From the NCBI GenBank assembly GCA_951406725.2, contig OX597829.1, positions 47,802,001 through 47,866,000 on the forward strand: 64,000 bases of DNA, written 5' to 3'. Under the pieces are notes generated by a model. That model saw only the letters and a list, made by a program, of their open reading frames with translations. It was not told the DNA's origin and made no database searches. This document shows, piece after piece, positions 349 through 64,000 of this stretch. Positions within the stretch are counted from its first letter, which is position 1, and each line of letters starts with the position of its first letter. This stretch comes from Octopus vulgaris (taxonomy: Eukaryota). The translations under genes and the position numbers were made by a program.

Positions 349-387
<39 letters not shown>

Positions 388-507
388 ACAAGATAAGGGC
401 AGAAGAAAAATTCTAATGCCAAATATGCCGAATCAAAAAATTGTCGATAACCATTATAATTTATGCGTCTCGAAACAAACCGATAGAAATCTCTAAAAAA
501 TTCGTTA

Positions 508-568
508 TTACCGTATTGGTCCAATTTCGGGTTAATTCATAAGAACATTTTCCCCTCTTCAGAGGCAA
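508..568 (-). ncRNA. Type I hammerhead ribozyme, inverted-arm copy
   Basis: Same motif on the minus strand with a mismatch at the first stem I pair and one less C in stem II. Confidence 0.7.
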
Positions 569-598
569 ATATAAGTATTTCACTTATATCTCGCGTAT

Positions 599-660
599 TT
601 GCCGCTGAAGAGGGGAAAATTTTCTTATGAATTAACCCCGAAATTGGACCAATACGGTAA
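599..660 (+). ncRNA. Type I hammerhead ribozyme (intact)
   Basis: TTGCCG-CTGAAGA-GGGG..CCCC-GAAA-TTGG A CCAA-TA-CGGTAA. Stems I, II and III all pair; predicted cut after A654. Confidence 0.85.
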
Positions 661-872
661 TAACGAATTTTTTAGAGATTTCTATCGGTTTGTTTCGAGT
701 CACATAAATTATAATGGTTATCGACAATTTTTTGTTTCGGCATATTTGGCATTAGAATTTTTCTTGTGCCCTTATCTTGTAAATTATTTATAAATTTAAC
801 CTGTAAAGGTATTTTTTGATATGCTGGCGATTGATAAATTTTTTTTCCCGAAAAGATTTTATCCTACATTAG

Positions 873-943
<71 letters not shown>

Positions 944-1040: not shown

Positions 1041-2500
1041 ACTAACAACATCACTATCAATGAATTAACCATTTCCCTATATCCGATGAGTAATATTACA
1101 GGTATCTAGGGGTGGATGAAAATATATTTTACAACGTCTCCTGCAACAAAATGCTTGTCACTAAACAAATTTGGACCTCGGAACACTGTATTCAATAAAA
1201 CAGTGGCCAACAATGTTTGTAGTGCCAGTGCTCATACCAAGATTTGGGCTGCTTGATTGGACGCTTGATGAGATCCGAGACATTGATGTGAAAACTCGGA
1301 AGGTACTAACCAGCACACATAATTTCCACATAAACAGTGACTTCTACCTGAAGCGAAAACAAGGCGGCAGAGGCTTAACATCTCTCTAAACTGCCCTTGA
1401 ATGTCGTATCATATCTCTTTGGCAACATCTTTTAACCACCAAGTGTCGAAGTGCATCTCTTGACCAAGTTTGGATACATAAGGCTGATAATATCAGAAAA
1501 CTTGGAAAGCAGCTTTTGAGCAGCATTCTTTGTCTGATAACCTAGAATACATATCCAATGAAGTTGCACGACTCTACTGCAACATATTAGATGAAAGGAT
1601 GAGCATATATGATAAGAAGACCATGAATGGCTATGTTATTAGAAAGCTCCGAGATGATAGTAACATTAATCATCAAAGCAGTCTATCATAGACTAACAAC
1701 CGGATTACTAACTCCCACTTCCAAGGGTATGTGTTTCCAATCCAGGAATAGGAAATATCAACCAAACACCTGATGCACAAAAGGGACAGTGATGCAGGAA
1801 AAGTGGTAAAATGTGACAATCGATGCAGAATTTGTGGAGTTCATACTGAAGATATCACCCACATCATAAGCAGTTGTCCGAAAATGTCATCACGGTTTTA
1901 TCTAGCGATGAGACATAATGTTGTAGCTAGAACACTCTATAATGAAATCTGTCGGAAGGATAATCCCGAGGATAAAGAAATAAGAATCCATAGTATGGCA
2001 GAAGCCATAGCCACTCATAATAAAAAGGAGATCTGATGGAATGTCCCAGTGAAGACCTCAGTAAAATATAAACACAACAGGCCTGATATAATGATTTGGG
2101 ATGGAGAAAAGAAACTGTGCACAATTGTGGAAATTAGCTGCCCAGTGGATGTTAACAAAGTTGAAGATCAGTGAAAAAGAGAACACATGATGAACTATTG
2201 AGAAATTTGCAGTTACTCTATCCAGATTACAAGTTCAGGTTTATACCTGTAATTATTGGGGCCTTGGGATATGTAACACACTGCCTAAATACCAATCTTG
2301 AGTAATTAAGCTTCTCAAAACCAGAAAAGAGAAAGCTAAATTTGAAGGCTACAGATCCAATCCATCAATGGAACTGTAAAAATCTGTAAAATTTTCCAGA
2401 AGTTTATCATTTAAATATATATGAGAATGTCTAGATATGTAACTATATACATAAGAATACATACACAAAACAGAACATACAAATCTGCGCATATAAATAC

Positions 2501-8626: not shown

Positions 8627-8808
8627 ACCGGAGTAAACACATAAATGTGAAACAAGGTGGAAAAAAGAGTACTCAAATACCAGTGGTAGAGTAATATGCT
8701 TTATTTTAAGCAGCAGAAAATTCAACAAAACCTGTTACTCTGAGTTTCTCGTTAACGAGAAACTCAGAGTAACAGGTTTTGTTGAATTTTCTGCTGCTTA
8801 AAATAAAG
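8627..8808 (-). mobile_element. PLE 3' end with perfect 110-bp fold-back (8699-8808)
   Basis: Palindrome centred on GTTAAC (8751-8756). Arms carry an HHR 3' half (GAAA-CTC A GAG-TA-ACAG). Same family as 29339-29540. Confidence 0.75.
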
Positions 8809-9309
8809 TATGTATATATGTATTCAGAAAGAGTGTGTGCTTGTGTGTATGAGAAAGAGAGAGTGAGAGACAGAGAGAGTGAGAGAGAGAGAGTGAAAGA
8901 GAGAGAAAGATAGAGAGATAGACAGACAGATACTGAGCTTCTTTAGTTTTGGTAGTATTGATGGGAATGTAGAGTAAGGGATTACTGTGGCTAGAAAGGG
9001 AACGTTAAAAGCAAAATAGATATACAAAGCAAGGAAATATACATTTCACATCGGAAAAAAATACTGTGACCTATTTTCGTCATCGTAGTTTTGGCATTGA
9101 TGACAAGATAGATAGGTAAAACGGTGTGTATGGGGTGTGTGTGGGATGTGGGGGTGGGGTGGGGGGTGGAGGGAAATATCCTAACAACAACAACAACAAC
9201 TACGATAACAACACCAAACAGGAGAAATTAACTGCGAGAACGCCAAAAGCCACATTCCTCATCAACAGCATCATCGTCGCCATACCAGCATCACCACCTC
9301 CATCCCCCC

Positions 9310-12850: not shown

Positions 12851-13659
12851 ATATTTGAGGGATGTTCGGCTACTATGTTTTTGAATAGACCCATTATTTC
12901 TAAGTGTTCTTGCAGTGGTTGTCCTGTTTTTTTTTTTATTCAGACTATGTGTCTAGGAATATATTACCAAAAAATATCTTTACCTTTTCCGCTTAGTAAA
13001 ACGGTGCAATGTAAATTTGAGGAAGCAAATCTGAGCACCTATTTCTGGCCCATTCATTGACCACTTAGAAGCGGTATTTTCATGGTTTTGTCTCCTAGTT
13101 CTCATATCCTGTTACATTTATGAGTAATTCTGGTATTTAACAGTGGAGATTATTATCTCTATGACGTAAGAAAAGTTATTATAGACTAAAAACAGAACAA
13201 CGCAATGCCAGAAGGACAGATAGAAATAATAGCACAGGTCACATTGGTGATGTGTGTGTGTGTGTGTGTGTGTGTGTCTGTGTGTGTGTGTATGTGCGTC
13301 TGTCTGTGTCTGTGTGTGTCTGGTTGTCTGGTTGTCTGTATTTATGTATATATGTATGTTATGTATGTGTGTGTGTATATACATATATATATATATGTAT
13401 ATGTATGCATGGACGTATGTGTATGTGGCATGTATGTATGCATCTAGGTATGAATATACGTATGCATGTATGTATGTGTATGCATGTACGTATGTACGCC
13501 TATGTATTTATATGTGTGTGTATGTATATGCACGCATCTAAGTATATACGTGTATATGAATGTACCTATGTATGTTTATATGTGTGTGTGAATGTGTGTG
13601 CATGTGTATGTGTGTATTATGTGTGTATATACATATATGTATGTATGCATTTTGGCTTT

Positions 13660-14655
13660 TTTGGACGCCCTGGTGAGAGATTACCTGTTTGAAGACGATT
13701 GTGCGCTTGCAGTATTGAATGAACCAGACCTGCAAGAACTTGCCACTTGTCTCGCAGAAGCAGCAAAAACCCTCGGACTGACCATTAGCCTGCGAAAAAC
13801 TGAAGTGATGTTTCAGCCTGTGTACCTGGCCTGACCACCTCCTGAGCCTCAGATTGAGATTGAGGGCACAACTCTGAACCACGTCAAGAGCTTTACGTAC
13901 TTGGGAAGCTGCCTGTCCTCAAACTACAGCATGGACAAAGATGTCTGCATGAGGCTTGCAAAAGCTGGACTTTCGTTTGGCAGACTTTGGACACGTGTGC
14001 GGGCTGAACGAGGCATCAGACTTTCCACCAAGCTGGCCGTTTATAGGGCAGTCGTCATCACCTCTCTGCTCTACGGCTGTGGGACGTGGACGCTGTATAG
14101 GAGGCAAATGCGAGTACTTGACCAGTTCCACCTCCGCTGCTTGCGACGAATCAGGGGAATTTCCTGGGAGGACAGAGTCTCCAACATTGAGGTGCTTCGC
14201 AGAGCCGAAATGCTCGGGATCGAAACTCTCATCATGAAGGCCCATCTCCGGTGGGTCGGACATGTAGTCCGAATGGATGACGCGCGTCTACCAAAGATGA
14301 TCTTCTTCTCTGAGCTGGCTTCTGGTGCAAGAAACCCTGGAAGGCCACTGAGGCGATACAATGACAGCCTGAAAACTTCCCTTGAGGCTTGCGGTATTTC
14401 AGCCCGTGGTTGGGAATCGCTTGCCTCTGACTGCTGCGCCTGGCGTCCAGCTGTCCAAAAGGGTGTTAGGCTGTTCGAGGAAAAACGCCTCAAGAGCCTG
14501 GACCAGAAGCGACAAGCCCGAAAAGAGAGGATCCCCAACCCTATTTCTGCTGTTACGTGCCCAACATGTGGCCGTGTCTGCGCGTCTGCCTTTGGGTTCC
14601 GTTCCCACCTCCGGCGTGACTGATGTCATTGTCGAGCCCCGACGGACTTCCATTA
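13660..14655 (+). mobile_element. RTE-clade (BovB-like) LINE 3' end, 5'-truncated
   Basis: YLFEDDCAL, GLTISLRKTEVM, FTYLGS, LLYGCGTWTLY, LRWVGHVVRMDDARLPK, CPTCGRVC..FRSH. One in-frame stop. Followed by a (TG)n tail. Confidence 0.92.
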
Positions 14656-16859: not shown

Positions 16860-18095
16860 AAGCGGTGAGCTGGTAGAACCATTAGCACGCCGGACAAAAT
16901 GCTTAGCGGCATTGAACTCGTTCGTCTTCATGTTCCGAGTTCAAATTCAGTCGAGGTCGACTTTGCCTTTCATTCTTTCGGGGTCAATAAAATAAGTACC
17001 ATTTGAACAATGGAGCTGATGTAATCGATTTATTTCCTCCCTAGAAATTTCAGGCTTTGTGTCAGAATTTGAAACCAATATTATAAGCATACGCCGAGGT
17101 CGACTTTGCCTTTCATCCTTTGTCTGTCCTTGTTTGTCCTCTCTATGTTGGCAATAAAGAAATAAATATTATAAGCACCCTATGGAGGAAACGATCTTGG
17201 TAGAATCGTTAGCCCGTTGGATAAAATGCTTAACGTTATTTCATGCAGTTCTTTGCGGTCTGAGTTCAAATTTTGCCGAGGTCTACTTTTGCCTTTCATT
17301 CTTTTGGTTTCGATTAAATTAAAACCAGTTGAGCACATGTAGCAGTCTTAAAATTGCTGGCCTTGTATCAAACTTCGAATCATTATCATTATGCAATAAT
17401 TTATTATAATGCGGTGAGCTTGCAGAAATGTTAACACGCCGGGCGAAATGCTCAGTGGTATTTCGTCTGCCGTTACGTTCTGAGTTCAAATTCCGCCAGG
17501 TCGACTTTGCCTTTCATCCTTTCGGGGTCGATAAATTAAGTACCAGTTACGCACTGGGGTCAATATGATTGACTTAATCCATTTGTTTGTCCTTGTTTAT
17601 CCCCTCTATGTTTAGCCCCTTGTGGGCAATAAAGAAATAAGAAACGTTAACACGCCGTGCAAAAATACTTACTAACAGTATTTCGTCTGCTGTTACGTTC
17701 TGAGTTCAAATTCTGCTGAGGTCAACTTTGCTTTTCATCCTTTGTTTTTCATCCGTTCATCGATTAAATAAGTACCAGTTACGCACTGAGGTCGATGTAA
17801 TCGACTTAATCCCTCTGTCTGTCCTTGTTTGTCCCCTCTATGTTTAGCCTCCTGTGAGAAATAAAGAAATAACTATATTATTCTAAGGAGTAAGTAAGCT
17901 GGCAGAATCGAGAGCATATCGGACAAAATGCTCAGCAGCATTTTTCCCAATTCTTTACGGTCTGAGTTAAAATCTCGCCGAGGACAGGTCGGTTTCACTT
18001 CTTATCTTTTCGAGGTTGGTAAAATGATTTCTAGTTGAGCACAAGGGACTTACTCACTTTCCCTAGAATCGCTGAGCTGTGTCAATATTTGAAAC
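16860..18095 (+). mobile_element. Cluster of SINE family 1 copies (~6, incl. tandem dimer 17411-17871)
   Basis: Repeated GAGTTCAAATT..GAGGTCGACTTTGCCTTTCATCCTTTCGGGGTCGAT core. Confidence 0.85.
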
Positions 18096-29291: not shown

Positions 29292-29338
<47 letters not shown>

Positions 29339-29339
<1 letters not shown>

Positions 29340-29537
29340 TTTATTTAAAGCAGCTATCTATCTATTCAACAAAACCTGTTACTCTGAGTTTCACACGTTT
29401 CCGTTCGTCGGAAACGTGAAACTCAGAGTAACAGGTTTTGTTGAATTTTCTGCTGCTTTAAATAAAGCATATTACTCTACCACTGGTATTTGAGTACTCT
29501 TTTTCCACCTTGTTTCACACATTTATGTGTTTACTCC

Positions 29538-29540
<3 letters not shown>
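29339..29540 (+). mobile_element. PLE 3' end with fold-back in (TA)n (same family as 8627)
   Basis: Inverted arms meet inside the HHR (CCGACGA-ACG gaaa CGT..GAAA-CTCAGAG-TA). Confidence 0.75.
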
Positions 29541-29582
<42 letters not shown>

Positions 29583-29666
29583 TTCGAGACAAACCACTAT
29601 TTTGCAAAACAAACAAGGAAAGACTTAATCAATACATAAAAATTTTTAATATAAAGAAATAAACCG

Positions 29667-29709
29667 CCACTACAATCGTTTCATGTCTTTAATGACACTC
29701 GTCAGGTGG
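29667..29709 (-). ncRNA. Minimal type I hammerhead ribozyme
   Basis: CCAC-CTGACGA-GTGTC attaaa GACAT-GAAA-CGATTG-TA-GTGG, ~90 bp from (TA)n. Confidence 0.8.
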
Positions 29710-29907
29710 ATTTTCGATCTAAAATATCAATATATTAAAATATAAGTTTAAAATAACAAAATTATCAATGAAAAATATAAATATATATAATCTATATATA
29801 ATCTATATATAATCAATATATAATCTAAAATAAACCCTATAAACAATTGAATATAAAGAAACCTATTATTTTTCCCTGAAAATTTGGATTTATTCCCTAA
29901 TATTTAT

Positions 29908-34040: not shown

Positions 34041-34086
<46 letters not shown>

Positions 34087-34088
<2 letters not shown>

Positions 34089-34261
34089 AGTTGTATACTG
34101 TCAACTTAATGTGAGAGTCCCTGAAGGGAATCACACTGCGTTGCTGCTTCCTAGGGCTAAATAGCAGTAGTGTGATTCCCTTCATGGGACTGTCACATAA
34201 AGCTGACAGTATACAACTACTCTATCGTACCACTACTGCATATATCTCTCTGAGATATTTA

Positions 34262-34270
<9 letters not shown>
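34087..34270 (+). mobile_element. Fold-back PLE-like 3' end with GGGCTAAA motif
   Basis: Inverted arms 34089-34137 / 34169-34217, between (GA)n and (TA)n. Confidence 0.6.
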
Positions 34271-34380: not shown

Positions 34381-34694
34381 TAGGCAATAATAATTCTCTA
34401 AAAGAGATATAGACAGTAACTGCTCGATAACATAAGGGACTAAAGCCATCTGAATATGGCTAGGGACAGGGCAGGGTGGTGGGGGTGTTACTGTTGCATT
34501 TAGCCCCAGGCGAACATCGACGTCACCAGAAAGGCTCGACACCGTCACGGTGCCCTTAACCTGCAAAGGGTTAAGGGCACCGTGACGGTGTCGAGCCTCT
34601 GGTGACGTCGATGTTCGCCTGGGGCTAAATGCAACAGTAACACCCCCACCACCCTGCCCTGTCCCTAGCCATATTCAGATGGCTTTAGTCCCTT

Positions 34695-34699
<5 letters not shown>
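34381..34699 (-). mobile_element. Young fold-back PLE-like 3' end with GGGGCTAAA motif
   Basis: ~131-bp arms 34429-34561 / 34569-34699, identical apart from a 2-nt indel, 7-nt spacer, within (TA)n. Confidence 0.7.
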
Positions 34700-34747: not shown

Positions 34748-35208
34748 ACCCCCTTCGGTCATTCATGACCATGGAATTGCACCTAGAAAGTTACCTTCTG
34801 AGACACAAGTCCTGGCAAAGTGGTTTATGAAAGGCCAGCAGTCGCCCGTGCATACCAGCCTCCCCTCTCCATGCCACTGATGTTACTCAAGGGAAAGGCA
34901 AAGGGGTTGATACAGCTTGGCACCAAGGCGGCGAGCTGGCAGAACCGTTAGCACGCCGGGCGAAATGTGTAGCCGTATTTCGTCTGCAGCTACGTTCTGA
35001 GTTCAAATTCCGCCGAGGTCGACTTTGCCTTTCATCCTTTCGGGGTCGATTAAATAAGTACCAGTTACGCACTGGGTCGATGTAATTGACTTAATCCCTT
35101 TGTCTGTCCTTGTTTGTCCCCTCTATGTTTAGCCCCTTGAGGGTAGTAAAGAAATAGATACAGCTTGGCACCAGTGATGTCGTAACTCATTTCTACAGCT
35201 GAGTGAAC
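34748..35208 (-). mobile_element. SINE family 4 interrupted by a family 1 SINE
   Basis: Reverse-complement similarity to 33096-33417. Confidence 0.8.
34926..35156 (+). mobile_element. SINE family 1, full length, nested
   Basis: Perfect 17-bp TSD GATACAGCTTGGCACCA. Confidence 0.93.
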
Positions 35209-35553
35209 TATAGTTTCCGGCTCGGAATTTCTGGAACCACCGTTGACATGGCTTACGCCTATTGCCTGATACCCATATACTGCATTAATATTTCTAGCAC
35301 TTTCCGTTGCCTTGTTGCCATTTATTGAACTCATAAAGCAAAATATGGCGAATATGCTCCTTTGTCACTTCCATTACAGCTTTTAAACAATAACCGTTAA
35401 AATCGAACTGCACTCTTTAATACTTGCACTAAGAATAAGGACAAAATAAAATTACTGCCTGCTTTTATAGCAAGTTGATACAGGTAGTTTATCCCGTACC
35501 CATCCGACTTTTAGCTTATGCAATTGAAAAAACAGCATTATTTATGGGACGAT
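35209..35553 (-). mobile_element. Mariner 5' fragment
   Basis: TIR-like GTCCCATAAATAATGC. MEVTKEHIRHILLYEF / GNKATESARNINAVYG / CQRWFQKFRAG (frameshifted HTH). Confidence 0.8.
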
Positions 35554-41681: not shown

Positions 41682-42620
41682 AGGCGGCGGGCTGGCAGAA
41701 TAGTTAACACGCCGGTCAAAATAATTAGGGGTATTTCGTCTGCCGTTACGTTCTGAGTTCAAATTCCGCCAGGTCGACTTTGCCTTTCATCCTTTTGGGG
41801 TCGATAAATTAAGTACCAGTTACGCACTGGGGTCGCTGTAATCGACTTAATCCGTTTGTGTGTCCTTGTTTGTCCCCTCTATGTTTAGCCCCTTATGGGT
41901 AGTAAAGAAATAGGTATTTCATCTGCCGCTAGGTTTTGAGTTCAAATTCCGCCGAGGTCGACTTTGCCTTTCATCCTTTCGGGGTCGATAAATTAAGTAC
42001 CAGTTACGCACTGGGGTCGATATAATCGACTTAATCCGTTTGTCTGTCCTTGTTTGTCCCCTCTGTGTTTAGCCCCTTATGATTAGTAAAGAAATAGGTA
42101 TTTCATCTGCCGCTAGGTTTTGAGTTCAAATTCCGCCGAGGTCGACTTTGCCTTTCATCCTTTCGGGGTCGATAAATTAAGTACCAGTTACGCACTGGGG
42201 TCGCTGTAATCGACTTAATCCGTTTGTCTGTTCTTGTTTGTCCCCTCTATGTTTAGTCCCTTATGGGTAGTAAAGAAATAGGAATTTCGTCTGCCGCTAG
42301 GTTCTGAGTTCAAATTCCGCCGAGGTCGACTTTGCCTTTCATCCTTTCGGGGTAGATTAAATAAGTACCAGTTACGCACTGGGGTCGATGTAATCGACTT
42401 AATCCGTTTGTGTGTCCTTGTTTGTCCTCTCTGTGTTCAGCCTCTTGTGGGTAGTAAAGAAATAGGTATTTCGCCCGCCTTTACATTCTGAGCTCAAATT
42501 CTTCCGTGGTTGACTTTGCTTTTTATCTTTTCTGGATCGATAAAATACGTACCTGTTATACATTAGGGTCGATGTAATCAACTAGCTACCTCACATAATT
42601 TCGGGCATTGTATCTAACCA
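41682..42620 (+). mobile_element. SINE family 1 tandem array: head, four ~184-bp bodies, old body
   Basis: Units start at 41731, 41914, 42098, 42282 and 42466. Confidence 0.92.
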
Positions 42621-46365: not shown

Positions 46366-47895
46366 TTGCAGATTTGTATGTTTTATGTATGTATTCTCAT
46401 GCATATAGTTCATATAGTTACATATCTAGACATGGTTATATATATTTAAATGATAAAGTTCTGGAATGCTTTACAGATTTTTACAGTTCCAGTGATGGAT
46501 TGGATCTGCAGTCTTCGAATTAGCTTTCTCCTTTCTGTTACTAGTTTGGTTTATAGTTTTTCCCCTTTTCACAACCATATAACGACATTTATCCTGACCA
46601 AACGCCAACCCTACATCCTTTGGGAATGTTGTAACTAGCTCAAGGTTCTTTTCCATCTCATGCATATTTTTTGCATAGTTTTAAGTCATCCACAAAGAAA
46701 CAGCGAGTAATTTTGATATTTCTGCTTCCTTGTGAACCAGTGAGATAATCATCAGACTTCCTTAATATGAATGACAAGGGGTTTACAGAAAGATTAAACA
46801 ACACCGCAGAGAGGTTGTCTCCTTGGAATATGCCTTTGCGATATTGTATTTTATCAGTGATAGTACAGTCACTCTTTATGTTTAATTTGAAGATGGTGGC
46901 CCACGATGAAGTCAAGTCAGCATTGGCTTTGACTATGCTCATTTTAGGAAGTTGAAGGGCTTCTAGCATCCATGAATGGGAAACAGAGTTAAAGGCTTTC
47001 TTGTAGTCTAGCCACATTGAAACTAGGTTCCTCTGACATCACAGCTTTGTGATTAACAAATGCTTGGAACATCCCCAGATTCCTTTCTTCCCAGCTGCTT
47101 GTTCTACTGTGATAATGTTATTGGTTTCACAATGGTCCTGGAGGAAGAGGTTTAAACATGCTGCATATATTTTATACATTAAGTTCTGGCATGCAATTAG
47201 CTGGTAGTTTTTTGCCATGTGGGTGGTTCTGCATTTGGGGATCAATTTTGTTTCTGCCTGAACTAACCAATGTGGTATGCTACTGTTCCCAATGAGAGCT
47301 TGCTGGTACAGATTGATAAGATATGTTCAATGGAATGTTAGCTCCTTGTACCAACATCCAGCAATCAAGTGTCTTCCAGGTGTTTTTCCATCCTATAGTT
47401 TCTGGATCACAGTTGCAAGAATTTCACCATCAATGTTGTATACATTGGATGTAACGCAGGAGCAATAACTTTTCCGGGTTCCTTGCATCCATAGAGCATC
47501 TTTGTTAAATTCCTTCTCTTCACTCCATATTTTCCTCCAGAAGGAGTCTACGTCTTCTTGTGAAGTATCTTCCGTGATGTTCATTGCTCCTGAGACTCAT
47601 GTCTCTGTATACTACTGCCTGGTTCCAGTTAATTTTTTTGTCTATTGTTCTTTTCTCAGTTATTCTCTTCTAATGTTGAAGTTTTCCCTGACCCCTTTTA
47701 GCTCCAGATTGAGGGCAATCAGTTTGCAAGTGAGTGTTCTCCTTTTGCTGTCTTCAAACATCATTTCTATCTCCTTCTTTACTTTCTGTTGGTGGGACGT
47801 ATAATGATTTGCTTGTTTGCAATAAGCATCATTACAGGACTGATGGTCTTCCGTAAACTGGTTATCTTTTTCTCTGTCTTCAAAACACATGATGG
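46345..47895 (-). mobile_element. R4/Dong-like LINE, RT domain with internal deletion (same family as 1041-2540)
   Basis: FWRKIWS, NYQLIACQNLMYKI, EQAAGKKG, WLDYKKAFNSVSHSW, GIFQGDNLS, FFVDDLKL, FGQDKC. 3' end matches 2322-2500 and ends in (TACA)n. Confidence 0.88.
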
Positions 47896-48418: not shown

Positions 48419-48839
48419 CAACAAGAAGCATGATTCCATCATATTGACTGCTATTTCTCCTAGGAGAAATAACAGCCAAATCAATGTACGTGTGTGTGCA
48501 TCAATGTATGCGCCAACTACAGCTTGTCGTGGAGATAAAAATTCTCTCCTCAGACAAAAAGGTTTTAAAGCTCCGGCTCATAACACTCTTTATGTGAGTG
48601 GTGAGTACTTTTCAAACTCGTTATTTCTCTTCAACACCAGATACCTTTTTATCATAAACGAGAATGTCCTCTCCTAGATGAACTGCAGTGGAAAGCCTTT
48701 CATGGCTAATATGCAGAGTGCGATGGGTTACTTGTTACCATTTTATAGTTTTAATTTCGCGCATGCACATTGTTTGTTTTTGATTTTGTCGACTACAGAG
48801 TATAGTAGGGTCAGTTGGGTACCGTCAGTGAGAAAACCA

Positions 48840-49520
48840 ATACCATGACGCAATTCACTCAGGCAGTAATTTGGAAACGACATGCTTCGCTGCTTGGCAT
48901 TCGCGCCGGAAGTTTCAATACGAACATTTCAGACATTCGGTATTTTTCATACAAGATCAGAAAGAGCCAATGTTTATCCCAAACCATCAAGAACAAGAGG
49001 AAAGACGGGCTACAAAACTTTTGAACAAACTCAAGCATCTCTTTCAACCGAACATGCTTTGCTTTTTCTCAGACGAGAAAAATTTCTGCCAGGATCAGAT
49101 GGTGAACACACAGAACAACCGTTGACTTGCCGTATCCCCAAAATATGTACCGAGAGTGGTAAAAAAATCAAACATCCAGGCAACATCATACTGTTTGGAG
49201 TGATCACTAGTGATGGCGACGTTATGCCTCCATTCATCTACCCATACGGCCTCAGATTCAACATCAAGTGCTTGGAGGAGGTAGTGCTGCCCTGGGGGAA
49301 GCGGGTGGCCACTGGAAGAACCTACGTCTGGCAACGGGACTCTGCACCATGCCACACAAGCAATTTCTGCCACCATATCACCATTAACATCTGGCCACCA
49401 AACTCCCCAGACTGCAATCCCTGGATTATTATGTGTGGGGCGCAGTTGAACAAGAGAGCAACAAAACTCCTTATAACATCAAAGATGAACTGAATAACAC
49501 GAAAGATGAACTGAACGAAT
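48840..49520 (+). mobile_element. Decayed Tc1/mariner (DD37D/maT-like) transposase
   Basis: FFSDEKNF..NTQNNR, FGVITSDG, YVWQRDSAPCHTS, WPPNSPDCNP. Frameshifts. Confidence 0.8.
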
Positions 49521-50038: not shown

Positions 50039-50246
50039 TTATAGAAGGAGCTTCTACAGGACTAGAACTGTTTCATTCAAAAGAAATCATCAGGAAGCTC
50101 CTAATGATTCCTGAGCTTCCTAATGATTTCTTTTGAATGAAACAGTTCTAGTCCTGTAGAAGCTCCTTCTATAAAATAAATTAATTTACTCTGCTATGTA
50201 TTGAGTACCTTATTTACTGTGGTTAACCCCGACTCAACCCGGGACC

Positions 50247-50250
<4 letters not shown>
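50039..50250 (+). mobile_element. PLE 3' end with fold-back, in (TA)n
   Basis: Arms 50039-50100 / 50113-50174, each comprising essentially one HHR. Confidence 0.75.
50048..50100 (-). ncRNA. Type I hammerhead ribozyme
   Basis: GAGCTTC-CTGATGA-tTTC tttt GAAt-GAAA-CAG ttctagtc CTG-TA-GAAGCTC. The plus copy at 50113-50165 has CTAATGA (G5A). Confidence 0.8.
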
Positions 50251-51956: not shown

Positions 51957-52136
51957 AGGAATTCACAAAAAAAATAATAAAAGACGAAGACAGGTGGTGT
52001 AAACAACAAACAGATGTATTAGTTCAACGCTCGGGAAGTGAAAATGTTTTTAACGTTTCGAGCCTACGCTCTTCCACAGAAAGGAACGCAGAAAGAAACG
52101 AGGTGAGAAAATAATGTGTGGTGGCTAGCGATCTAT
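51955..52136 (-). mobile_element. PLE-like 3' end with variant HHR (52049-52082)
   Basis: TTT-CTGTGGA-A-GAGC gtag GCTC-GAAA-CG-TT-AAA. Same family as 62021. Confidence 0.65.
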
Positions 52137-55202: not shown

Positions 55203-55302
55203 CTCGGCGGAATTTGAACTCTGAACGTAGCGGCAGACGAAATACCGCTAGGCATTTCGCCCGGTGTCCTAGCCATCCTGCCATCTCACCGCCCTCCAAT
55301 GT

Positions 55303-55355
<53 letters not shown>

Positions 55356-56250
55356 CCTTTTTCCCCACCCAATACACGTTGGAGGGCGGTGAGATGGCAG
55401 AATCGTTAGCACACTGGGCGAAATGCCTAGCGGTATTTCGCCTGCCGCTACGTTCTGAGTTCAAATTCCGCTGAGGTCGACTTTGCCTTTTATCCTTTCG
55501 GGGTCGATAAATTAAGTACCAGTTACGCACTGGGGTCGACTTAATACCTATGTCTGTCCTTGTTTGTCCCCTCTGTGTTTAGCCCCTTGTGGGTAATAAA
55601 GAAATAAGTATTTCGCCTGCCGCTACGTTCTGAGTTCAAATTCCGCCGAGGTCGACTTTGCCTTTTATCCTTTCGGGGTCGATAAATTAAGTACCAGTTA
55701 CGCACTGGGGTCGATGTGTCGACTTAATCTCTTTGTAGTGTCCTCTATGTTTAATCCCCTGTGGGCAATAAGGAAATAAATAATAACACACATTGGTTCT
55801 ATCGTTAGTAAATTGGTTAAATATCTAACCAACAGACTTGCTGCTTGAACCATCGATCGGTTGTTTGTTATTATTATTATTATTATTAATCCTTTTTCCC
55901 CACCCAATACACATTGGAGGGCGGCGAGCTGGCAGAAACGTTAGCACGCCGGGCGAAATGCTTAGCGGTATTTCGTCTGCCGTTTCGTTGTGAGTTCAAA
56001 TTCCGCCGAGGTCGACTTTGCCTTTCATCCTCTCGGGGTCGATAAATTAAGTACCAGTTACACACTGAGATCGATATAATCGACTTAATCCATTTATCTG
56101 TCCTTGTTTGTCCTCTCTGTGTTTAGTCCCCTGAGGACAATAAGGAAATAAATAATGACACAATGACACACATTGGTTCTATTGTTAGTCAATTGGTTAA
56201 ATATCTAACCAACAGACTTGCTGCTTGAAACATCAATCGGTTGTTTGTTT
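55203..56250. mobile_element. SINE family 1 copies within a local inverted plus tandem duplication
   Basis: Inverted head plus flank at 55203-55307. Direct units ~55345-55868 and ~55880-56250 share both flanks. Confidence 0.8.
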
Positions 56251-57541: not shown

Positions 57542-57600
<59 letters not shown>

Positions 57601-58113
57601 TAGATAAACTCGTTAGATAAGGCCGAATCAATACGATATCAAATACAAAATAAACTACAGAAAAAGAAACAGAATAGCCGGGGTTTTAACCCAAATTTTG
57701 ATATTTCGGGGTTATGACTCCTTCTTCGGTACACGTGGAGAAATGAGGGGGTGGAACAAGTGCTCCTTATTAACAAATTGGATCCAGCTCTAAACAATTG
57801 GCTATTATATCAACATTAGTCTCCGCGTGTTACCATCCTCCCTCACACATCTGAGCAACGATTTATTTCATCACAGGGTTATAACAGCGAAATATCGAAA
57901 TATAAGGCAAAACTACAACTGTTGTTCTGTTGTTTCTTTCTTTTTTTTTTTTTTTTTTTGTTTTTGTTTTTTGTGTTTTTTTTTTTGTAGTTTGACTTGT
58001 ATTTCATCTCGCATTGTTTCGGCCTTATCATACGAGTTTATCAAATGTAATATTACACAATGCTTTACACTATCTATTCTATATGTGTGTATGTATGTAT
58101 GTATGTGTGTATG

Positions 58114-59722: not shown

Positions 59723-59728
<6 letters not shown>

Positions 59729-59937
59729 TGTAATATATGACAATTATTCGGTAGCCATGATAAAACTCCGAGTTTCGGATGTCGGGTCGGAAATCCACGC
59801 CGCTCTCTATTCAGTTATCCGGAGTTTTATCATGGCTACCGAATAATCGTCACATATTACAATTACAGATAAATTTCTCTATTTACATAATATCGAGGTC
59901 TCTTTCATTCTTTTGCTGTCTTACCATTTCTATCAAT
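59723..59937 (+). mobile_element. PLE-like 3' end with fold-back and atypical HHR-like motif
   Basis: Arms 59723-59770 / 59820-59867. Minus strand reads GATAA-CTGAATAGA..GGAT..ATCC-GAAA-CTC G GAG-TT-TTATC. Confidence 0.6.
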
Positions 59938-59973: not shown

Positions 59974-60026
<53 letters not shown>

Positions 60027-60134
60027 AGAAGAAGAAGAAGAAGAAGAAGAAGAAGAAGAAGAAGAAGAAGAAGAAGAAGAAGAAGAAGAAGAAGAAGAAG
60101 AAGAAGAAGAAGAAGAAGAAGAAGAAGAAGAAGA

Positions 60135-60480
60135 ATTACGGAACAGAGACTCTATGACCAGGTAAGGGCAATAAGGAAGAAATGATAGCTTATAGCATTA
60201 GAGCTTGATGAGATTAAGAATGTAATGATTGAAAAAAAAACAAGGGGTGAAGTAGATGTGGTTACAGAGAAAGTTGGCGAGGCTACATTTAATGAAGGTG
60301 TCCGGGAGAATTATAAGGACTTGAATCTTGAGAGAATAGAAGGACTGAATGATGAGGACGGAGGAATGATGAAAGACATCATTAGCATCATTGAGGAAAA
60401 CCTGGACATAGAAACAAATGGATTCAGTAAATAGAAATTTTCTCGGCGGGGTGGAGAAATTAGAATTGACAGGAGGGCAG
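60135..60480 (+). mobile_element. RLE-LINE N-terminal fragment after (GAA)n
   Basis: ITEQRLYDQVRAIRKK..L..LELDEIK resembles the R4-clade ORF N-terminus. Confidence 0.5.
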
Positions 60481-61147
60481 AACATACCCCAAAAGTTGCT
60501 CTATTGGGGTAAGTTATGATTTGGGGATTGGCGCTTGGGTATTGAGTGTCTTCCACGATAAGTTAACATCCAGGTAATATAGATTATAACTTGCGGAAGG
60601 AGACCCTGTGAGACCTCTATCAACAGGTTGTTGTCCGCTCTCACAGAATCAATCAAAACATTTATAGACCGACAGCTCTATGAAGAGAAAAAAGGATAGG
60701 CTACTGCAAATATTCTGTTCAATACCACAAATTTGCTTGTCAGTTGTTTGACCTTAACCAGTTGAGCATATCCCATAGTGGCTGACGATATGTGCATATC
60801 TGATCACGAGCAGAAGTAGTGGGGATCATCATAGCCATGTGTTGAGAGGAACTCTTTAGGGTTTGGATGATTTACCTCTGGAAACACGGGTGTTTCATTC
60901 AACATCCTTAAACAATCCTTATTCAGGGACCTTTTGAGCCGGATGGGCTACTCGACCTGAAGAAAATTCTAATTGGATCCACACCTGCAAGGTTATGCGC
61001 TATTTATCTTGATATGAATTCACTATGATACGCATATTGTGATCATGTGTCTGGACTTTGCATATTATATTTACACTGGACTTCGCATATTATATCAAGT
61101 GTCACTTTGATGGCATGTGCTCTTCTCTCACTCAATAATAATCATTA

Positions 61148-61464
61148 AAAACCGATAAATATGGAGACCTGAGAATTGAGAGATTGCCAAGATGTGGCAG
61201 CTACAAGAGTCAAACTTAAAGGTTGTCCCTATTGTCATCGGAGCATTGGGTTCAATACCACCCAATCTGAAAAGACATATGGAAACTTTAGAAATACCCT
61301 ACAATCTAGATGTATTGCAAAAGTTGGGATTACTTGGAACTGCACACATATTGCATAAAGTACTGTGTGTCTGAGGTCCTTGTTGTGACTTGGCAACAAC
61401 CCCCGATAGATACAATATCTTCAATCAACAACATATTGGATACTGTGCGACGTCTTTAATAGTA

Positions 61465-61544
<80 letters not shown>

Positions 61545-61545
61545 T
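61148..61545 (+). mobile_element. R4/Dong-like LINE 3' tip with (TAA)n tail
   Basis: KTDKYGDLRIEIAKMW..KVVPIVIGALGSIP..LQKLGLLGTAHILHKVL*, then short UTR and (TAA)n. Confidence 0.8.
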
Positions 61546-61577
61546 ACAACAGCAACGTAATATAAATAAAATGTCAA

Positions 61578-61617
<40 letters not shown>

Positions 61618-62020
61618 AAGTTGTGTGACAGCAAAAACGAAATAATCTCACATATTGTGAGTGAGCGTAGCAAGCTGAACCAAAAGCACTACAAAAGGAG
61701 GCACGACAACGTAAATTAGCAATTCGGCAAAAGTAACCGATACAATAAATATTAGGCTTCAAAAAATGGTAGTCGGGTTGCTTCGTTCGACTAGCAGTTT
61801 TTCAAAGTCTTGCCCCAGCATGGCCGCAGTCTAATGACTGAAACAAGTAAAAAGTGAAAATGTAAAAGGTGTATGTATATATACATATATTTGCATATGT
61901 AAGAGTATTTATAAAAATATATATGTAAATGTATATACACATACACACACACACATATATATATATGTATGTATGTACATATGTATATGTATATATATAT
62001 ATCTGTTCAGCCTTCGCCAT

Positions 62021-62212
62021 GATAGATCGCTAGCCACTACACATTCTTTATTTTCTCTCCTTGTGTTCCTTTCTGTGTTCCTTTCTGTGGAAGAGCGTAG
62101 GCTCGAAACGTTAAAGACTTTTTCACTTCCCGAGCGTTATACTAATACATCCGTTTGTTTTCTACACCACCTGTCTTCGTCTTTTGTGTTTTTTTTTGTG
62201 TGAATTCTCTCT
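62021..62212 (+). mobile_element. PLE-like 3' end with variant HHR (62081-62116)
   Basis: CTTT-CTGTGGA-A-GAGC gtag GCTC-GAAA-CG-TT-AAAG. Confidence 0.65.
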
Positions 62213-62213
62213 A

Positions 62214-62354
<141 letters not shown>

Positions 62355-62699
62355 GTAAGCACACAGTCACATATATATATATATAACTATGTGTGTTACG
62401 GGGTGTGTGAGTATGCTCATAGACAGACAGACAGACTGAGAAACAGACCGACTGGCAGACAGATAGACAGATAGGTAGAACGATCTGCACATAGAGAAAG
62501 AGAGACAAATGACGCCTTTCTTCACATGATCGAACCAATTGAATCGTATAATGATGGGCGCGACTTTGACTATAAAAACACAGGTATTTTGAGACCATTG
62601 TATGAGTGTCTCTCCTTCTTTTCCGACTCGCCTCTCTCTCCCCCTCACATCTCTCTCTACAAATGTACATACATACATACATGCATACATATATTTATA

Positions 62700-62737
<38 letters not shown>

Positions 62738-62994
62738 TTTAACAATTAAGGATAATCTCTTAATAAGGGATCTTAACAAGAAATTATCGGGTAGCTAGCG
62801 TGAAAACCTCATAAAAGAAAAGAATCCGAAAATAATTTTTTTCTTTTGAACAAATTAATTATATCTATATTGTATAGAGGGCATTATTACACATAAATGC
62901 CTCACACTAGGAGGGACAAAGTCATTACTACCAAAATTATACTAATCATACCCAAATGCAGTTTTTCAAAGCAAGACATTTAAAAAATGAATTT

Positions 62995-63052
62995 AGTTCT
63001 GTATCACCGTGATTTCACATACAACTTGCGTCTAATGATCGTCAGCAGAACT
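62995..63052 (-). ncRNA. Type I hammerhead ribozyme (copy 1)
   Basis: AGTTCTG-CTGACGA-stem II with GCAA loop-GAAA-TCAC G GTGA-TA-CAGAACT. Confidence 0.8.
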
Positions 63053-63474
63053 GATTCTGAACACATCATAAATAAACTACCAACCTTACGTAGCGAAGAC
63101 GAACAGACAACTGCTCACTCCGGCCAAGCACATGGAATGTTTATAAATCATATATCCGGTAAATGGCGGGCTTTTTACGAACTGCATGTCGGGTAATGAA
63201 AAGTATTTCGGAATAAGTTTAACAATTAAGGATAATCTCTTAATAAGGGATCTTAACAAGAAATTATCGGGTAGCTAGCGTGAAAACCTCATAAAAGAAA
63301 AGAATCCGAAAATAATTTTTTTCTTTTGAACAAATTAATTATATCTATATTGTATAGAGGGCATTATTACACATAAATGCCTCACACTAGGAGGGACAAA
63401 GTCATTACTACCAAAATTATACTAATCATACCCAAATGCAGTTTTTCAAAGCAAGACATTTAAAAAATGAATTT

Positions 63475-63532
63475 AGTTCTGTATCACCGTGATTTCACAT
63501 ACAACTTGCGTCTAATGATCGTCAGCAGAACT
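63475..63532 (-). ncRNA. Type I hammerhead ribozyme (copy 2)
   Basis: Identical to copy 1, 480 bp away. Confidence 0.8.
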
Positions 63533-63720
63533 GATTCTGAACACATCATAAATAAACTACCAACCTTACGTATCGAAGACGAACAGACAACTGCTCACTC
63601 CGGCCAAGCACATGGAATGTTTATAAATCATATATCCGGTAAATGGCGGGCTTTTTACGAAGTTGTCTGTTCGTCTTCGCTACGTAAGGTTGGTAGTTTA
63701 TTTATGATGTGTTCAGAATC

Positions 63721-63778
63721 AGTTCTGCTGACGATCATTAGACGCAAGTTGTATGTGAAATCACGGTGATACAGAACT
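63721..63778 (+). ncRNA. Type I hammerhead ribozyme (inverted copy)
   Basis: Identical motif; predicted cut after A63771. Confidence 0.8.
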
Positions 63779-64000
63779 AAATTCATTTTTAAATGTCTTG
63801 CTTTGAAAAACTGCATTTGGGTATGATTAGTATAATTTTGGTAGTAATGACTTTGTCCCTCCTAGTGTGAGGCATTTATGTGTAATAATGCCCTCTATAC
63901 AATATAGATATAATTAATTTGTTCAAAAGAAAAAATTATTTTCGGATTCTTTTCTTTTATGAGGTTTTCACGCTAGCTACCCGATAATTTCTTGTTAAGA

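Follow-up and report, generated by a model that had tools for sequence, protein, structure and literature searches.

At the right-hand end of the 64-kb window (the whole 64,000-nucleotide stretch of Octopus vulgaris DNA analyzed here) lies a tandem of 480-bp hammerhead-bearing units with an adjoining inverted copy. We read it, with a probability of roughly 0.55, as a 480-nt Penelope-like element (PLE) unit that is non-autonomous and has no ORF, in effect a retrozyme-type pseudo-LTR (pLTR) with a hammerhead ribozyme, which PLE enzymes inserted very recently, using a multimeric or circular RNA as template. The insertion is probably an ordinary small parasite of Penelope retrotransposons. Judged from its sequence, the whole insertion is the published PLE layout with the ORF body reduced to 31 bp, and what is known of PLEs and retrozymes accounts well for the locus. 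As presented in PMC7229834 (Cervera and de la Pena 2020) and bioRxiv 10.64898/2026.07.22.740005 (Li, Clavereau and Pollet 2026), the role of PLEs in animal retrozyme insertion rests on co-occurrence and pLTR similarity; a retrozyme-like tandem bearing the PLE integration signature is a test case for retrozyme insertion, and the locus may inform how circular-RNA elements of the retrozyme type get inserted. Were the unit junction unique, the locus would be an ordinary PLE fragment, of a type present eight more times in the 64 kb.

The head-to-tail 480-bp tandem of the original prediction proved real (TRF period 480 and 1.9 copies at 62733-63661; 1.94 units when aligned exactly), with the correction that copy 2 measures 449 bp (Table 1). 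A complete type I hammerhead sits in both of the consecutive direct copies, and the unit is short and AT-rich (34% GC, under the 50% bound used for retrozymes). Copies 1 and 2 differ by a single mismatch over 449 bp (G63093/T63573) and are separated by 31 bp only, versus the multi-kb ORF of a full PLE. This 31-bp segment has the length of the 30-40 bp tail found at one end of PLE insertions, and here it follows the 3' terminus internally. The left end of the insertion adjoins a (TA)n tract at 62685-62735, the right end lies beyond the window, and a 68-bp stretch of copy 2 (63593-63660) has no counterpart in the inverted copy. Within the 64-kb window we found no further copies of the unit, and the 21-mer spanning the 63213/63212 junction occurs once. 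The pLTRs in partial tandem, the adjoining inverted 5'-truncated copy, the hammerhead inside the pLTR and, at the left end, the AT-rich (TA)n target are all features of PLE insertions.

Table 1. Features of the insertion and of comparable insertions in the window
Feature	Position	Strand	Description
Copy 1	62733..63212	-	Sole complete unit (480 bp: pLTR-like 449 bp and the 31-bp segment); 3' terminus at 62733
Copy 2	63213..63661	-	449 bp; 5' end clipped by inversion junction; SNP at 63573
Copy 3	63661..64000	+	Inverted, 5'-truncated; equals 63112-62771; runs off window end
31-bp segment	63182..63212	-	Single occurrence; PLE "tail" size; partner is the region 39-73 nt past the cleavage site
(TA)n microsatellite, insertion target	62685..62735	.	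ATA at 62733-62735 common to tract and element 3' end
Head-to-head inversion junction	63661	.	1 nt microhomology
Type I hammerhead, copy 1	62995..63052	-	Core at 63045; predicted cut after AUA, between 63002 and 63001
Type I hammerhead, copy 2	63475..63532	-	Core at 63525; predicted cut between 63482 and 63481; sequence equals copy 1
Type I hammerhead, copy 3	63721..63778	+	Core at 63728; identical sequence
Cleavage-to-cleavage RNA monomer, 480 nt (predicted)	63002..63481	-	Branched rod; 68% of bases paired as circle
Sibling	384-873		Hammerhead at 605 (+); 92% inverted repeat between (TA)n tracts; 89-bp one-sided extension
Sibling	50039-50249		Hammerhead 50093(-), core-mutated copy 50120(+); small inverted repeat; 75-bp extension before (TA)n
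Siblings, one family	8627-8811 and 29324-29539		Inverted arms; roughly 70-bp one-sided extension beside (TA)n
Siblings	34081-34265, 34383-34699, 57599-58080, 59723-59936		Microsatellite-flanked inverted repeats; extensions 34-69 bp

The inverted third copy does carry the copy 1 allele at the SNP, as had been claimed; two single-base homopolymer deletions that it also has, one in the A6 run near 62982 and the other in the T7 run near 62836, had been overlooked. A single change in copy 2 accounts for the SNP, and we therefore rejected it as evidence of copy order or origin, on which the shared allele is uninformative. On the predicted structure, the copy 2 allele is probably the derived state and would disrupt a G-C pair. 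The start of the inverted copy at 63661 (equivalent to 63112) falls two bases ahead of the apex loop of a long hairpin, upstream of the ribozyme, and this position may mark a stop of the reverse transcriptase (RT).

The near-identity of the copies and the two deletions in copy 3, which resemble long-read errors, fit a post-insertion DNA rearrangement or an assembly or amplification artefact (a tandem duplication with a fold-back chimera), and PMC8557442 notes that assemblers struggle with such structures. We nevertheless consider this origin very improbable, given that the single 31-bp segment is complementary to sequence far away in the unit (0/100 shuffles), which duplication or mis-assembly would not bring about, that copy 3 agrees at the SNP with copy 1 and not with the neighboring copy 2, and that older siblings with diverged arms (83-98% identity) indicate that inverted insertions arise biologically in this genome.

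The ribozyme motif has an AUA cut site, a helix I of 7 bp and a palindromic helix III; its core strands are CUGACGA and GAAA, and the helix II domain between them spans 22 nt. Identical intact hammerheads 480 bp apart had been predicted; their identity and the spacing of exactly 480 bp between the two direct copies stand, while "intact" has to be qualified, as all three, complete in their cores and with an internal loop in helix I, have a mismatched U.U at the helix II base, and the window holds no hammerhead match at the Rfam gathering score. Extending the Rfam search to E=10 over 60001-64000 returned 47 matches, none of them a hammerhead; a mir-6536 match was rejected as merely the inversion hairpin. 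Using descriptor thresholds set after the motif had been seen, a strict search gave four matches in the window (the three here and 50093) and none in each of 200 locally shuffled windows, and a relaxed search gave seven matches against a shuffle mean of 0.2 (maximum 2). The isolated 73-mer ribozyme did not adopt the active fold (z 0.05), and this, together with the lack of an Rfam hammerhead match, counts against the preferred reading. The U.U mismatch at the helix II base is also described for the axolotl ribozyme HHR_Amex2, whose cleavage, according to PMC7229834, is weak for the single ribozyme and good for the dimer.

Folding predictions set the ribozyme strand apart. The linear monomer (63481 to 63002) has a predicted energy of -130.2 kcal/mol (z -6.06), with none of 100 shuffles equally stable, and the circular monomer gives z -5.0 versus -3.1 for the opposite strand (60 shuffles each), with 19 G.U pairs in the monomer fold of the ribozyme strand versus 8 in that of the opposite strand. 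As controls, 31 of the 42 eligible 480-nt windows were folded on both strands with 10 shuffles each (one of 43 was excluded for spanning an inverted-repeat center); the 62 strands had a mean z of -0.8 and a minimum of -5.46, and 2/62 reached -4 or lower. That minimum came from 48421-48900 (-), with 10 shuffles only. In the circular monomer the active ribozyme fold costs 1.2 kcal/mol, such that, by folding prediction, the monomer is self-paired with an accessible ribozyme.

The predicted rod pairs positions 20-81 with 259-322, spanning the 31-bp segment and its downstream neighbor. Shuffling the 31-bp segment left none of 60 variants equally stable and put its contribution at approximately 18 kcal/mol (tail-to-arm pairing, 0/100), and shuffling the 22 nt next to it had a modest effect (2/60 equally stable). 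At the 63213/63212 junction, terminus-side pairing was at chance level, with 25/60 shuffles equally stable, and the junction could therefore be a one-off join.

In the 929-nt RNA of the two direct copies, the minimum-energy fold is a double hammerhead, with helix III pair probabilities of 0.84-0.95 and single ribozymes 6-7 kcal/mol higher in energy. The original prediction held that a minus-strand transcript would release a 480-nt circularizable RNA, and the folding models are favorable to this only if transcription starts near 63661: the outer helix I, which is needed for the second cut, has P=0.72 in a transcript from 63661 and 0.51-0.55 in the 929-nt RNA. It is formed from this start point only, with P at or below 0.02 for seven of the eight start points. 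Once at least 100 nt of the inverted copy are included in the transcript, the paired helix III is gone, and for read-through from the window end the double hammerhead would cost +91.5 kcal/mol. We thus regard it as improbable, on these models, that the locus itself is an active source of 480-nt circular RNA, a notion which would be compatible with the preferred explanation and which draws on the predicted formation of both double-hammerhead halves from 63661 and on the cleavage, better as a dimer, of the axolotl ribozyme with the same mismatch (PMC7229834). The loss of the double fold suggests instead that the locus is probably a product rather than a source.

Provisionally, the 480-bp unit resembles a non-LTR retrozyme and falls under the operational definition of bioRxiv 10.64898/2026.07.22.740005. 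The earlier description of the unit as retrozyme-like accordingly keeps part of its force: the unit is non-coding with 34% GC, its ribozyme strand is strongly self-paired, and the double hammerhead is the best predicted two-unit fold. Metazoan non-LTR retrozymes, as characterized in PMC7229834 and bioRxiv 10.64898/2026.07.22.740005, are likewise tandem arrays of short units that are low in GC, encode no protein and carry a type I hammerhead, and share the self-paired monomer and dimer-assisted cleavage, both of which are predicted here. At 480 bp the unit exceeds the 150-450 bp stated in PMC7229834 and lies inside the 51-972 bp stated in bioRxiv 10.64898/2026.07.22.740005. Unlike retrozymes as described in these sources, the locus has only 1.94 units and an inverted copy, and, unlike canonical retrozyme hammerheads, its ribozyme has a long helix II with an internal loop and a palindromic helix III. 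A long helix II and a palindromic helix III typify PLE ribozymes in the description given by PMC4209133, and on these two features the ribozyme looks more PLE-like than canonical retrozyme. Li, Clavereau and Pollet (bioRxiv 10.64898/2026.07.22.740005) note that retrozymes resemble pLTRs and argue that they derive from them.

PMC3846280 depicts the typical Penelope insertion as a direct pair of pLTRs with a third, shorter one inverted and, optionally, a tail of 31 bp; PMC8557442 summarizes PLE insertions as a partial tandem plus an inverted 5'-truncated copy, with a 30-40 bp tail and a (TA)n bias. The locus shares with EN+ PLE insertions (Pen2a_Av and the Pen3a-mobilized gene of Adineta vaga; PMC3846280, PMC8557442) the two direct pLTRs, the shorter head-to-head inverted pLTR, the 31-bp tail-sized segment, the pLTR hammerhead and the (TA)n target. 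It differs from them in having no RT/GIY-YIG ORF between the direct pLTRs, in the internal position of the 31-bp segment and in an inversion junction that is itself without a palindrome. Non-autonomous head-to-tail PLEs are known (PMC8557442), and pLTRs are reported in PMC3846280 to have been shown acting in trans. Chlamys PLEs such as MRC1 offer a parallel, being ORF-less PLE derivatives with pLTRs and head-to-tail multicopy insertions; unlike this locus they are green-algal, and their clade is mostly without canonical hammerheads (PMC8557442). In Poseidon PAc of Anolis carolinensis, too, the 3' end of the insertion lies downstream of the hammerhead and the target is AT-rich, and the tail is explained as what lies between two internal sites of RT initiation, an idea that may apply equally to the 31 bp. 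Poseidon PAc is autonomous, with its ORF start inside the ribozyme, and its RT start lies approximately 90 nt past the cut versus 269 nt here (PMC11167929). A literature search for non-autonomous Penelope elements with an inversion yielded nothing beyond PMC3846280, PMC8557442, PMC11167929 and the retrozyme papers cited. No octopus or cephalopod retrozyme or Penelope-hammerhead family was described in the titles and abstracts searched, which mostly exclude subscription papers, and such a family may be catalogued; cephalopods go unmentioned in the portions of PMC7761336 drawn on here.

The absence of a recognizable protein, noted earlier from open reading frames, was confirmed by six-frame, Pfam and homologue searches of the unit. 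Six-frame read-through of the unit revealed no RT or GIY-YIG, with only matches below the Pfam cut-offs, and its longest ATG ORFs are 33 aa (sense) and 69 aa (antisense), leaving it with no recognizable coding capacity. Pfam found no PLE domain among 150 of the 331 complex stop-to-stop ORFs of the window, three of them from the unit, and the two ORFs searched against large protein sets had no homologue. Taken as a proxy for recurrence of the junction, ORFs that span it gave no homologue and 0/6 exact matches among predicted proteins, and unit DNA had no match in plasmids, phages or prokaryotic genomes, as expected for such collections. A short stretch at the junction looked similar to the C-terminus of a Neptune endonuclease; this candidate found no support, in a frame examined by Pfam alone. 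Lacking an RT/GIY-YIG ORF between its pLTRs, this copy is not autonomous, though it may descend from an autonomous element.

Such descent underlies an alternative that we hold possible without favoring it, a partial tandem of an autonomous PLE in which the RT starts three times at the same 3' site and stops after 480, 449 and approximately 378 nt, the 480-bp spacing being accidental. A tandem with an inverted 5'-truncated copy is the usual form of a PLE insertion, the eight siblings in the window are head-to-head with short truncated arms, the terminus side of the junction has no structural continuity (25/60), and the ribozyme belongs with the dimer-dependent ones of PLEs. Against this, the 211 nt upstream of the cut contain no ORF end and form long helices, two truncations would have to hit one base or lie only 31 nt from each other, and the first would coincide exactly with the end of a 27-pair helix. 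The 31-bp segment, moreover, is as long as a natural tail and lies where one would, yet it pairs in register with downstream sequence. The choice between a retrozyme and a 5'-truncated PLE, posed originally as alternatives, is less of an opposition than it was framed to be, since in both cases the insertion as a whole shows the standard PLE layout.

Under the preferred explanation of an ORF-less unit copied by PLE enzymes, a multimeric sense RNA would form the double hammerhead via its palindromic helix III and be cut into 480-nt rod-folding monomers, as the folding predictions suggest. A PLE RT/GIY-YIG enzyme acting in trans would then nick the (TA)n tract, copying would start internally, 269 nt past the ribozyme cut, and, on a template that was multimeric or circular, a first cDNA would reach 929 nt (1.94 units). 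Priming from the opposite target strand would start a second cDNA, the source of the inverted copy, and the two 5'-truncated cDNA ends would be joined at 63661. L1 twin priming is the analogy for such an inverted copy primed from the second strand; "twin priming" as a term was not found in the PLE literature searched. Had this second priming used the tail-end site, the first cDNA would end exactly 31 nt short of two units, as observed; a break 30-90 nt from the terminus is expected by chance about 1 time in 8, which makes this a prediction rather than proof. Once in place, the inverted copy would turn read-through RNA into a long hairpin, which makes the locus more likely a dead-end product than a source of circular RNA. 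The reports at hand bear on individual steps of this scheme: PMC11167929 has the PLE RT initiating internally at tail-defining sites and both target strands cut, and also one reptile PLE that inserts in vitro without ribozyme cleavage; PMC3846280, where it discusses inversions, prefers self-priming as their origin; and in the vertebrate survey of bioRxiv 10.64898/2026.07.22.740005, eight of nine predicted dimers failed to cleave. Insertion without ribozyme cleavage, the preference for self-priming and the dimers that failed count against the preferred explanation, as do the single known locus, the chance-level pairing at the junction, the PLE-like helices II and III and the unit length above 150-450 bp.

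A more specific version, which we consider rather unlikely, regards the 480-nt unit as a mobile retrozyme family with a fixed monomer and the locus as a record of how a PLE enzyme copied it: one cDNA of 1.94 units would have begun at the terminus site and another, on the opposite target strand, at the tail-end site, which would explain why the first fell 31 nt short. If this version were true, the window end would be followed directly by 62770-62733 in reverse complement, next by 63212-63182, likewise inverted, and finally by microsatellite; a single event would yield both the one-sided tail and the head-to-head inversion; and the locus would be direct genomic evidence for PLE machinery inserting multimeric or circular retrozyme RNA.

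Eight further loci in the window share the design of a microsatellite, head-to-head inverted arms, a one-sided extension and a second microsatellite (Table 1). This layout leads us to interpret them as PLE ends; no PLE ORF turned up to prove it. Their extensions measure approximately 34-89 bp, and two of them hold hammerheads (605+ and 50093-), with none found in 34081-34265, 34383-34699, 57599-58080 or 59723-59936 by the descriptors used. In the six of eight whose arms meet at the center, arm identity is 75-98% (self-BLAST, whole inverted repeat) versus more than 99% for the insertion at 62733, making the latter the youngest of such insertions in the window. The 384-873 sibling, also older, has a 605(+) hammerhead whose helix III is likewise palindromic, and a decayed partner on the minus strand. 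With sibling boundaries placed by eye and two siblings belonging to one family, tail-to-arm pairing was significant in two of the eight (0/100 and 2/100), borderline in one (9/100) and absent in five, a low proportion that counts against the preferred reading.

The window as a whole is animal-type genome sequence, rich in microsatellites and transposon remnants. A lone type I hammerhead lies at 29665-29710 (-), with its core at 29705, approximately 100 bp from a (TA)n tract, and a dispersed pair beside microsatellites (62022-62185 and 51979-52136, 89% identity) has an apparent decayed hammerhead core, seen by eye and missed by the descriptor. LINE remnants comprise RVT_1 matches at 46661-47038(-) and 13592-13831(+), a weak zf-RVT match at 1752-2033(+) and a 262-aa ORF at 13835-14620(+) that is presumably RTE-like. 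At 61180-61545, a 64-aa ORF end without a Pfam match presumably resembles the C-terminus of an R4/Dong-type non-LTR element, and is followed by a long (AAT)n tract. We take 48870-49490(+) to be a Tc1/mariner-like transposase remnant, with two homologues in the protein search, and a further such remnant, with a weak HTH_48 match, lies at 35068-35364(-). A very common SINE-like repeat (41730-42583, 17458-17872 and 55203-56250) occurs locally in tandems of 184 bp (4.6 copies) or 232 bp and forms an inverted pair at 55203-55475.
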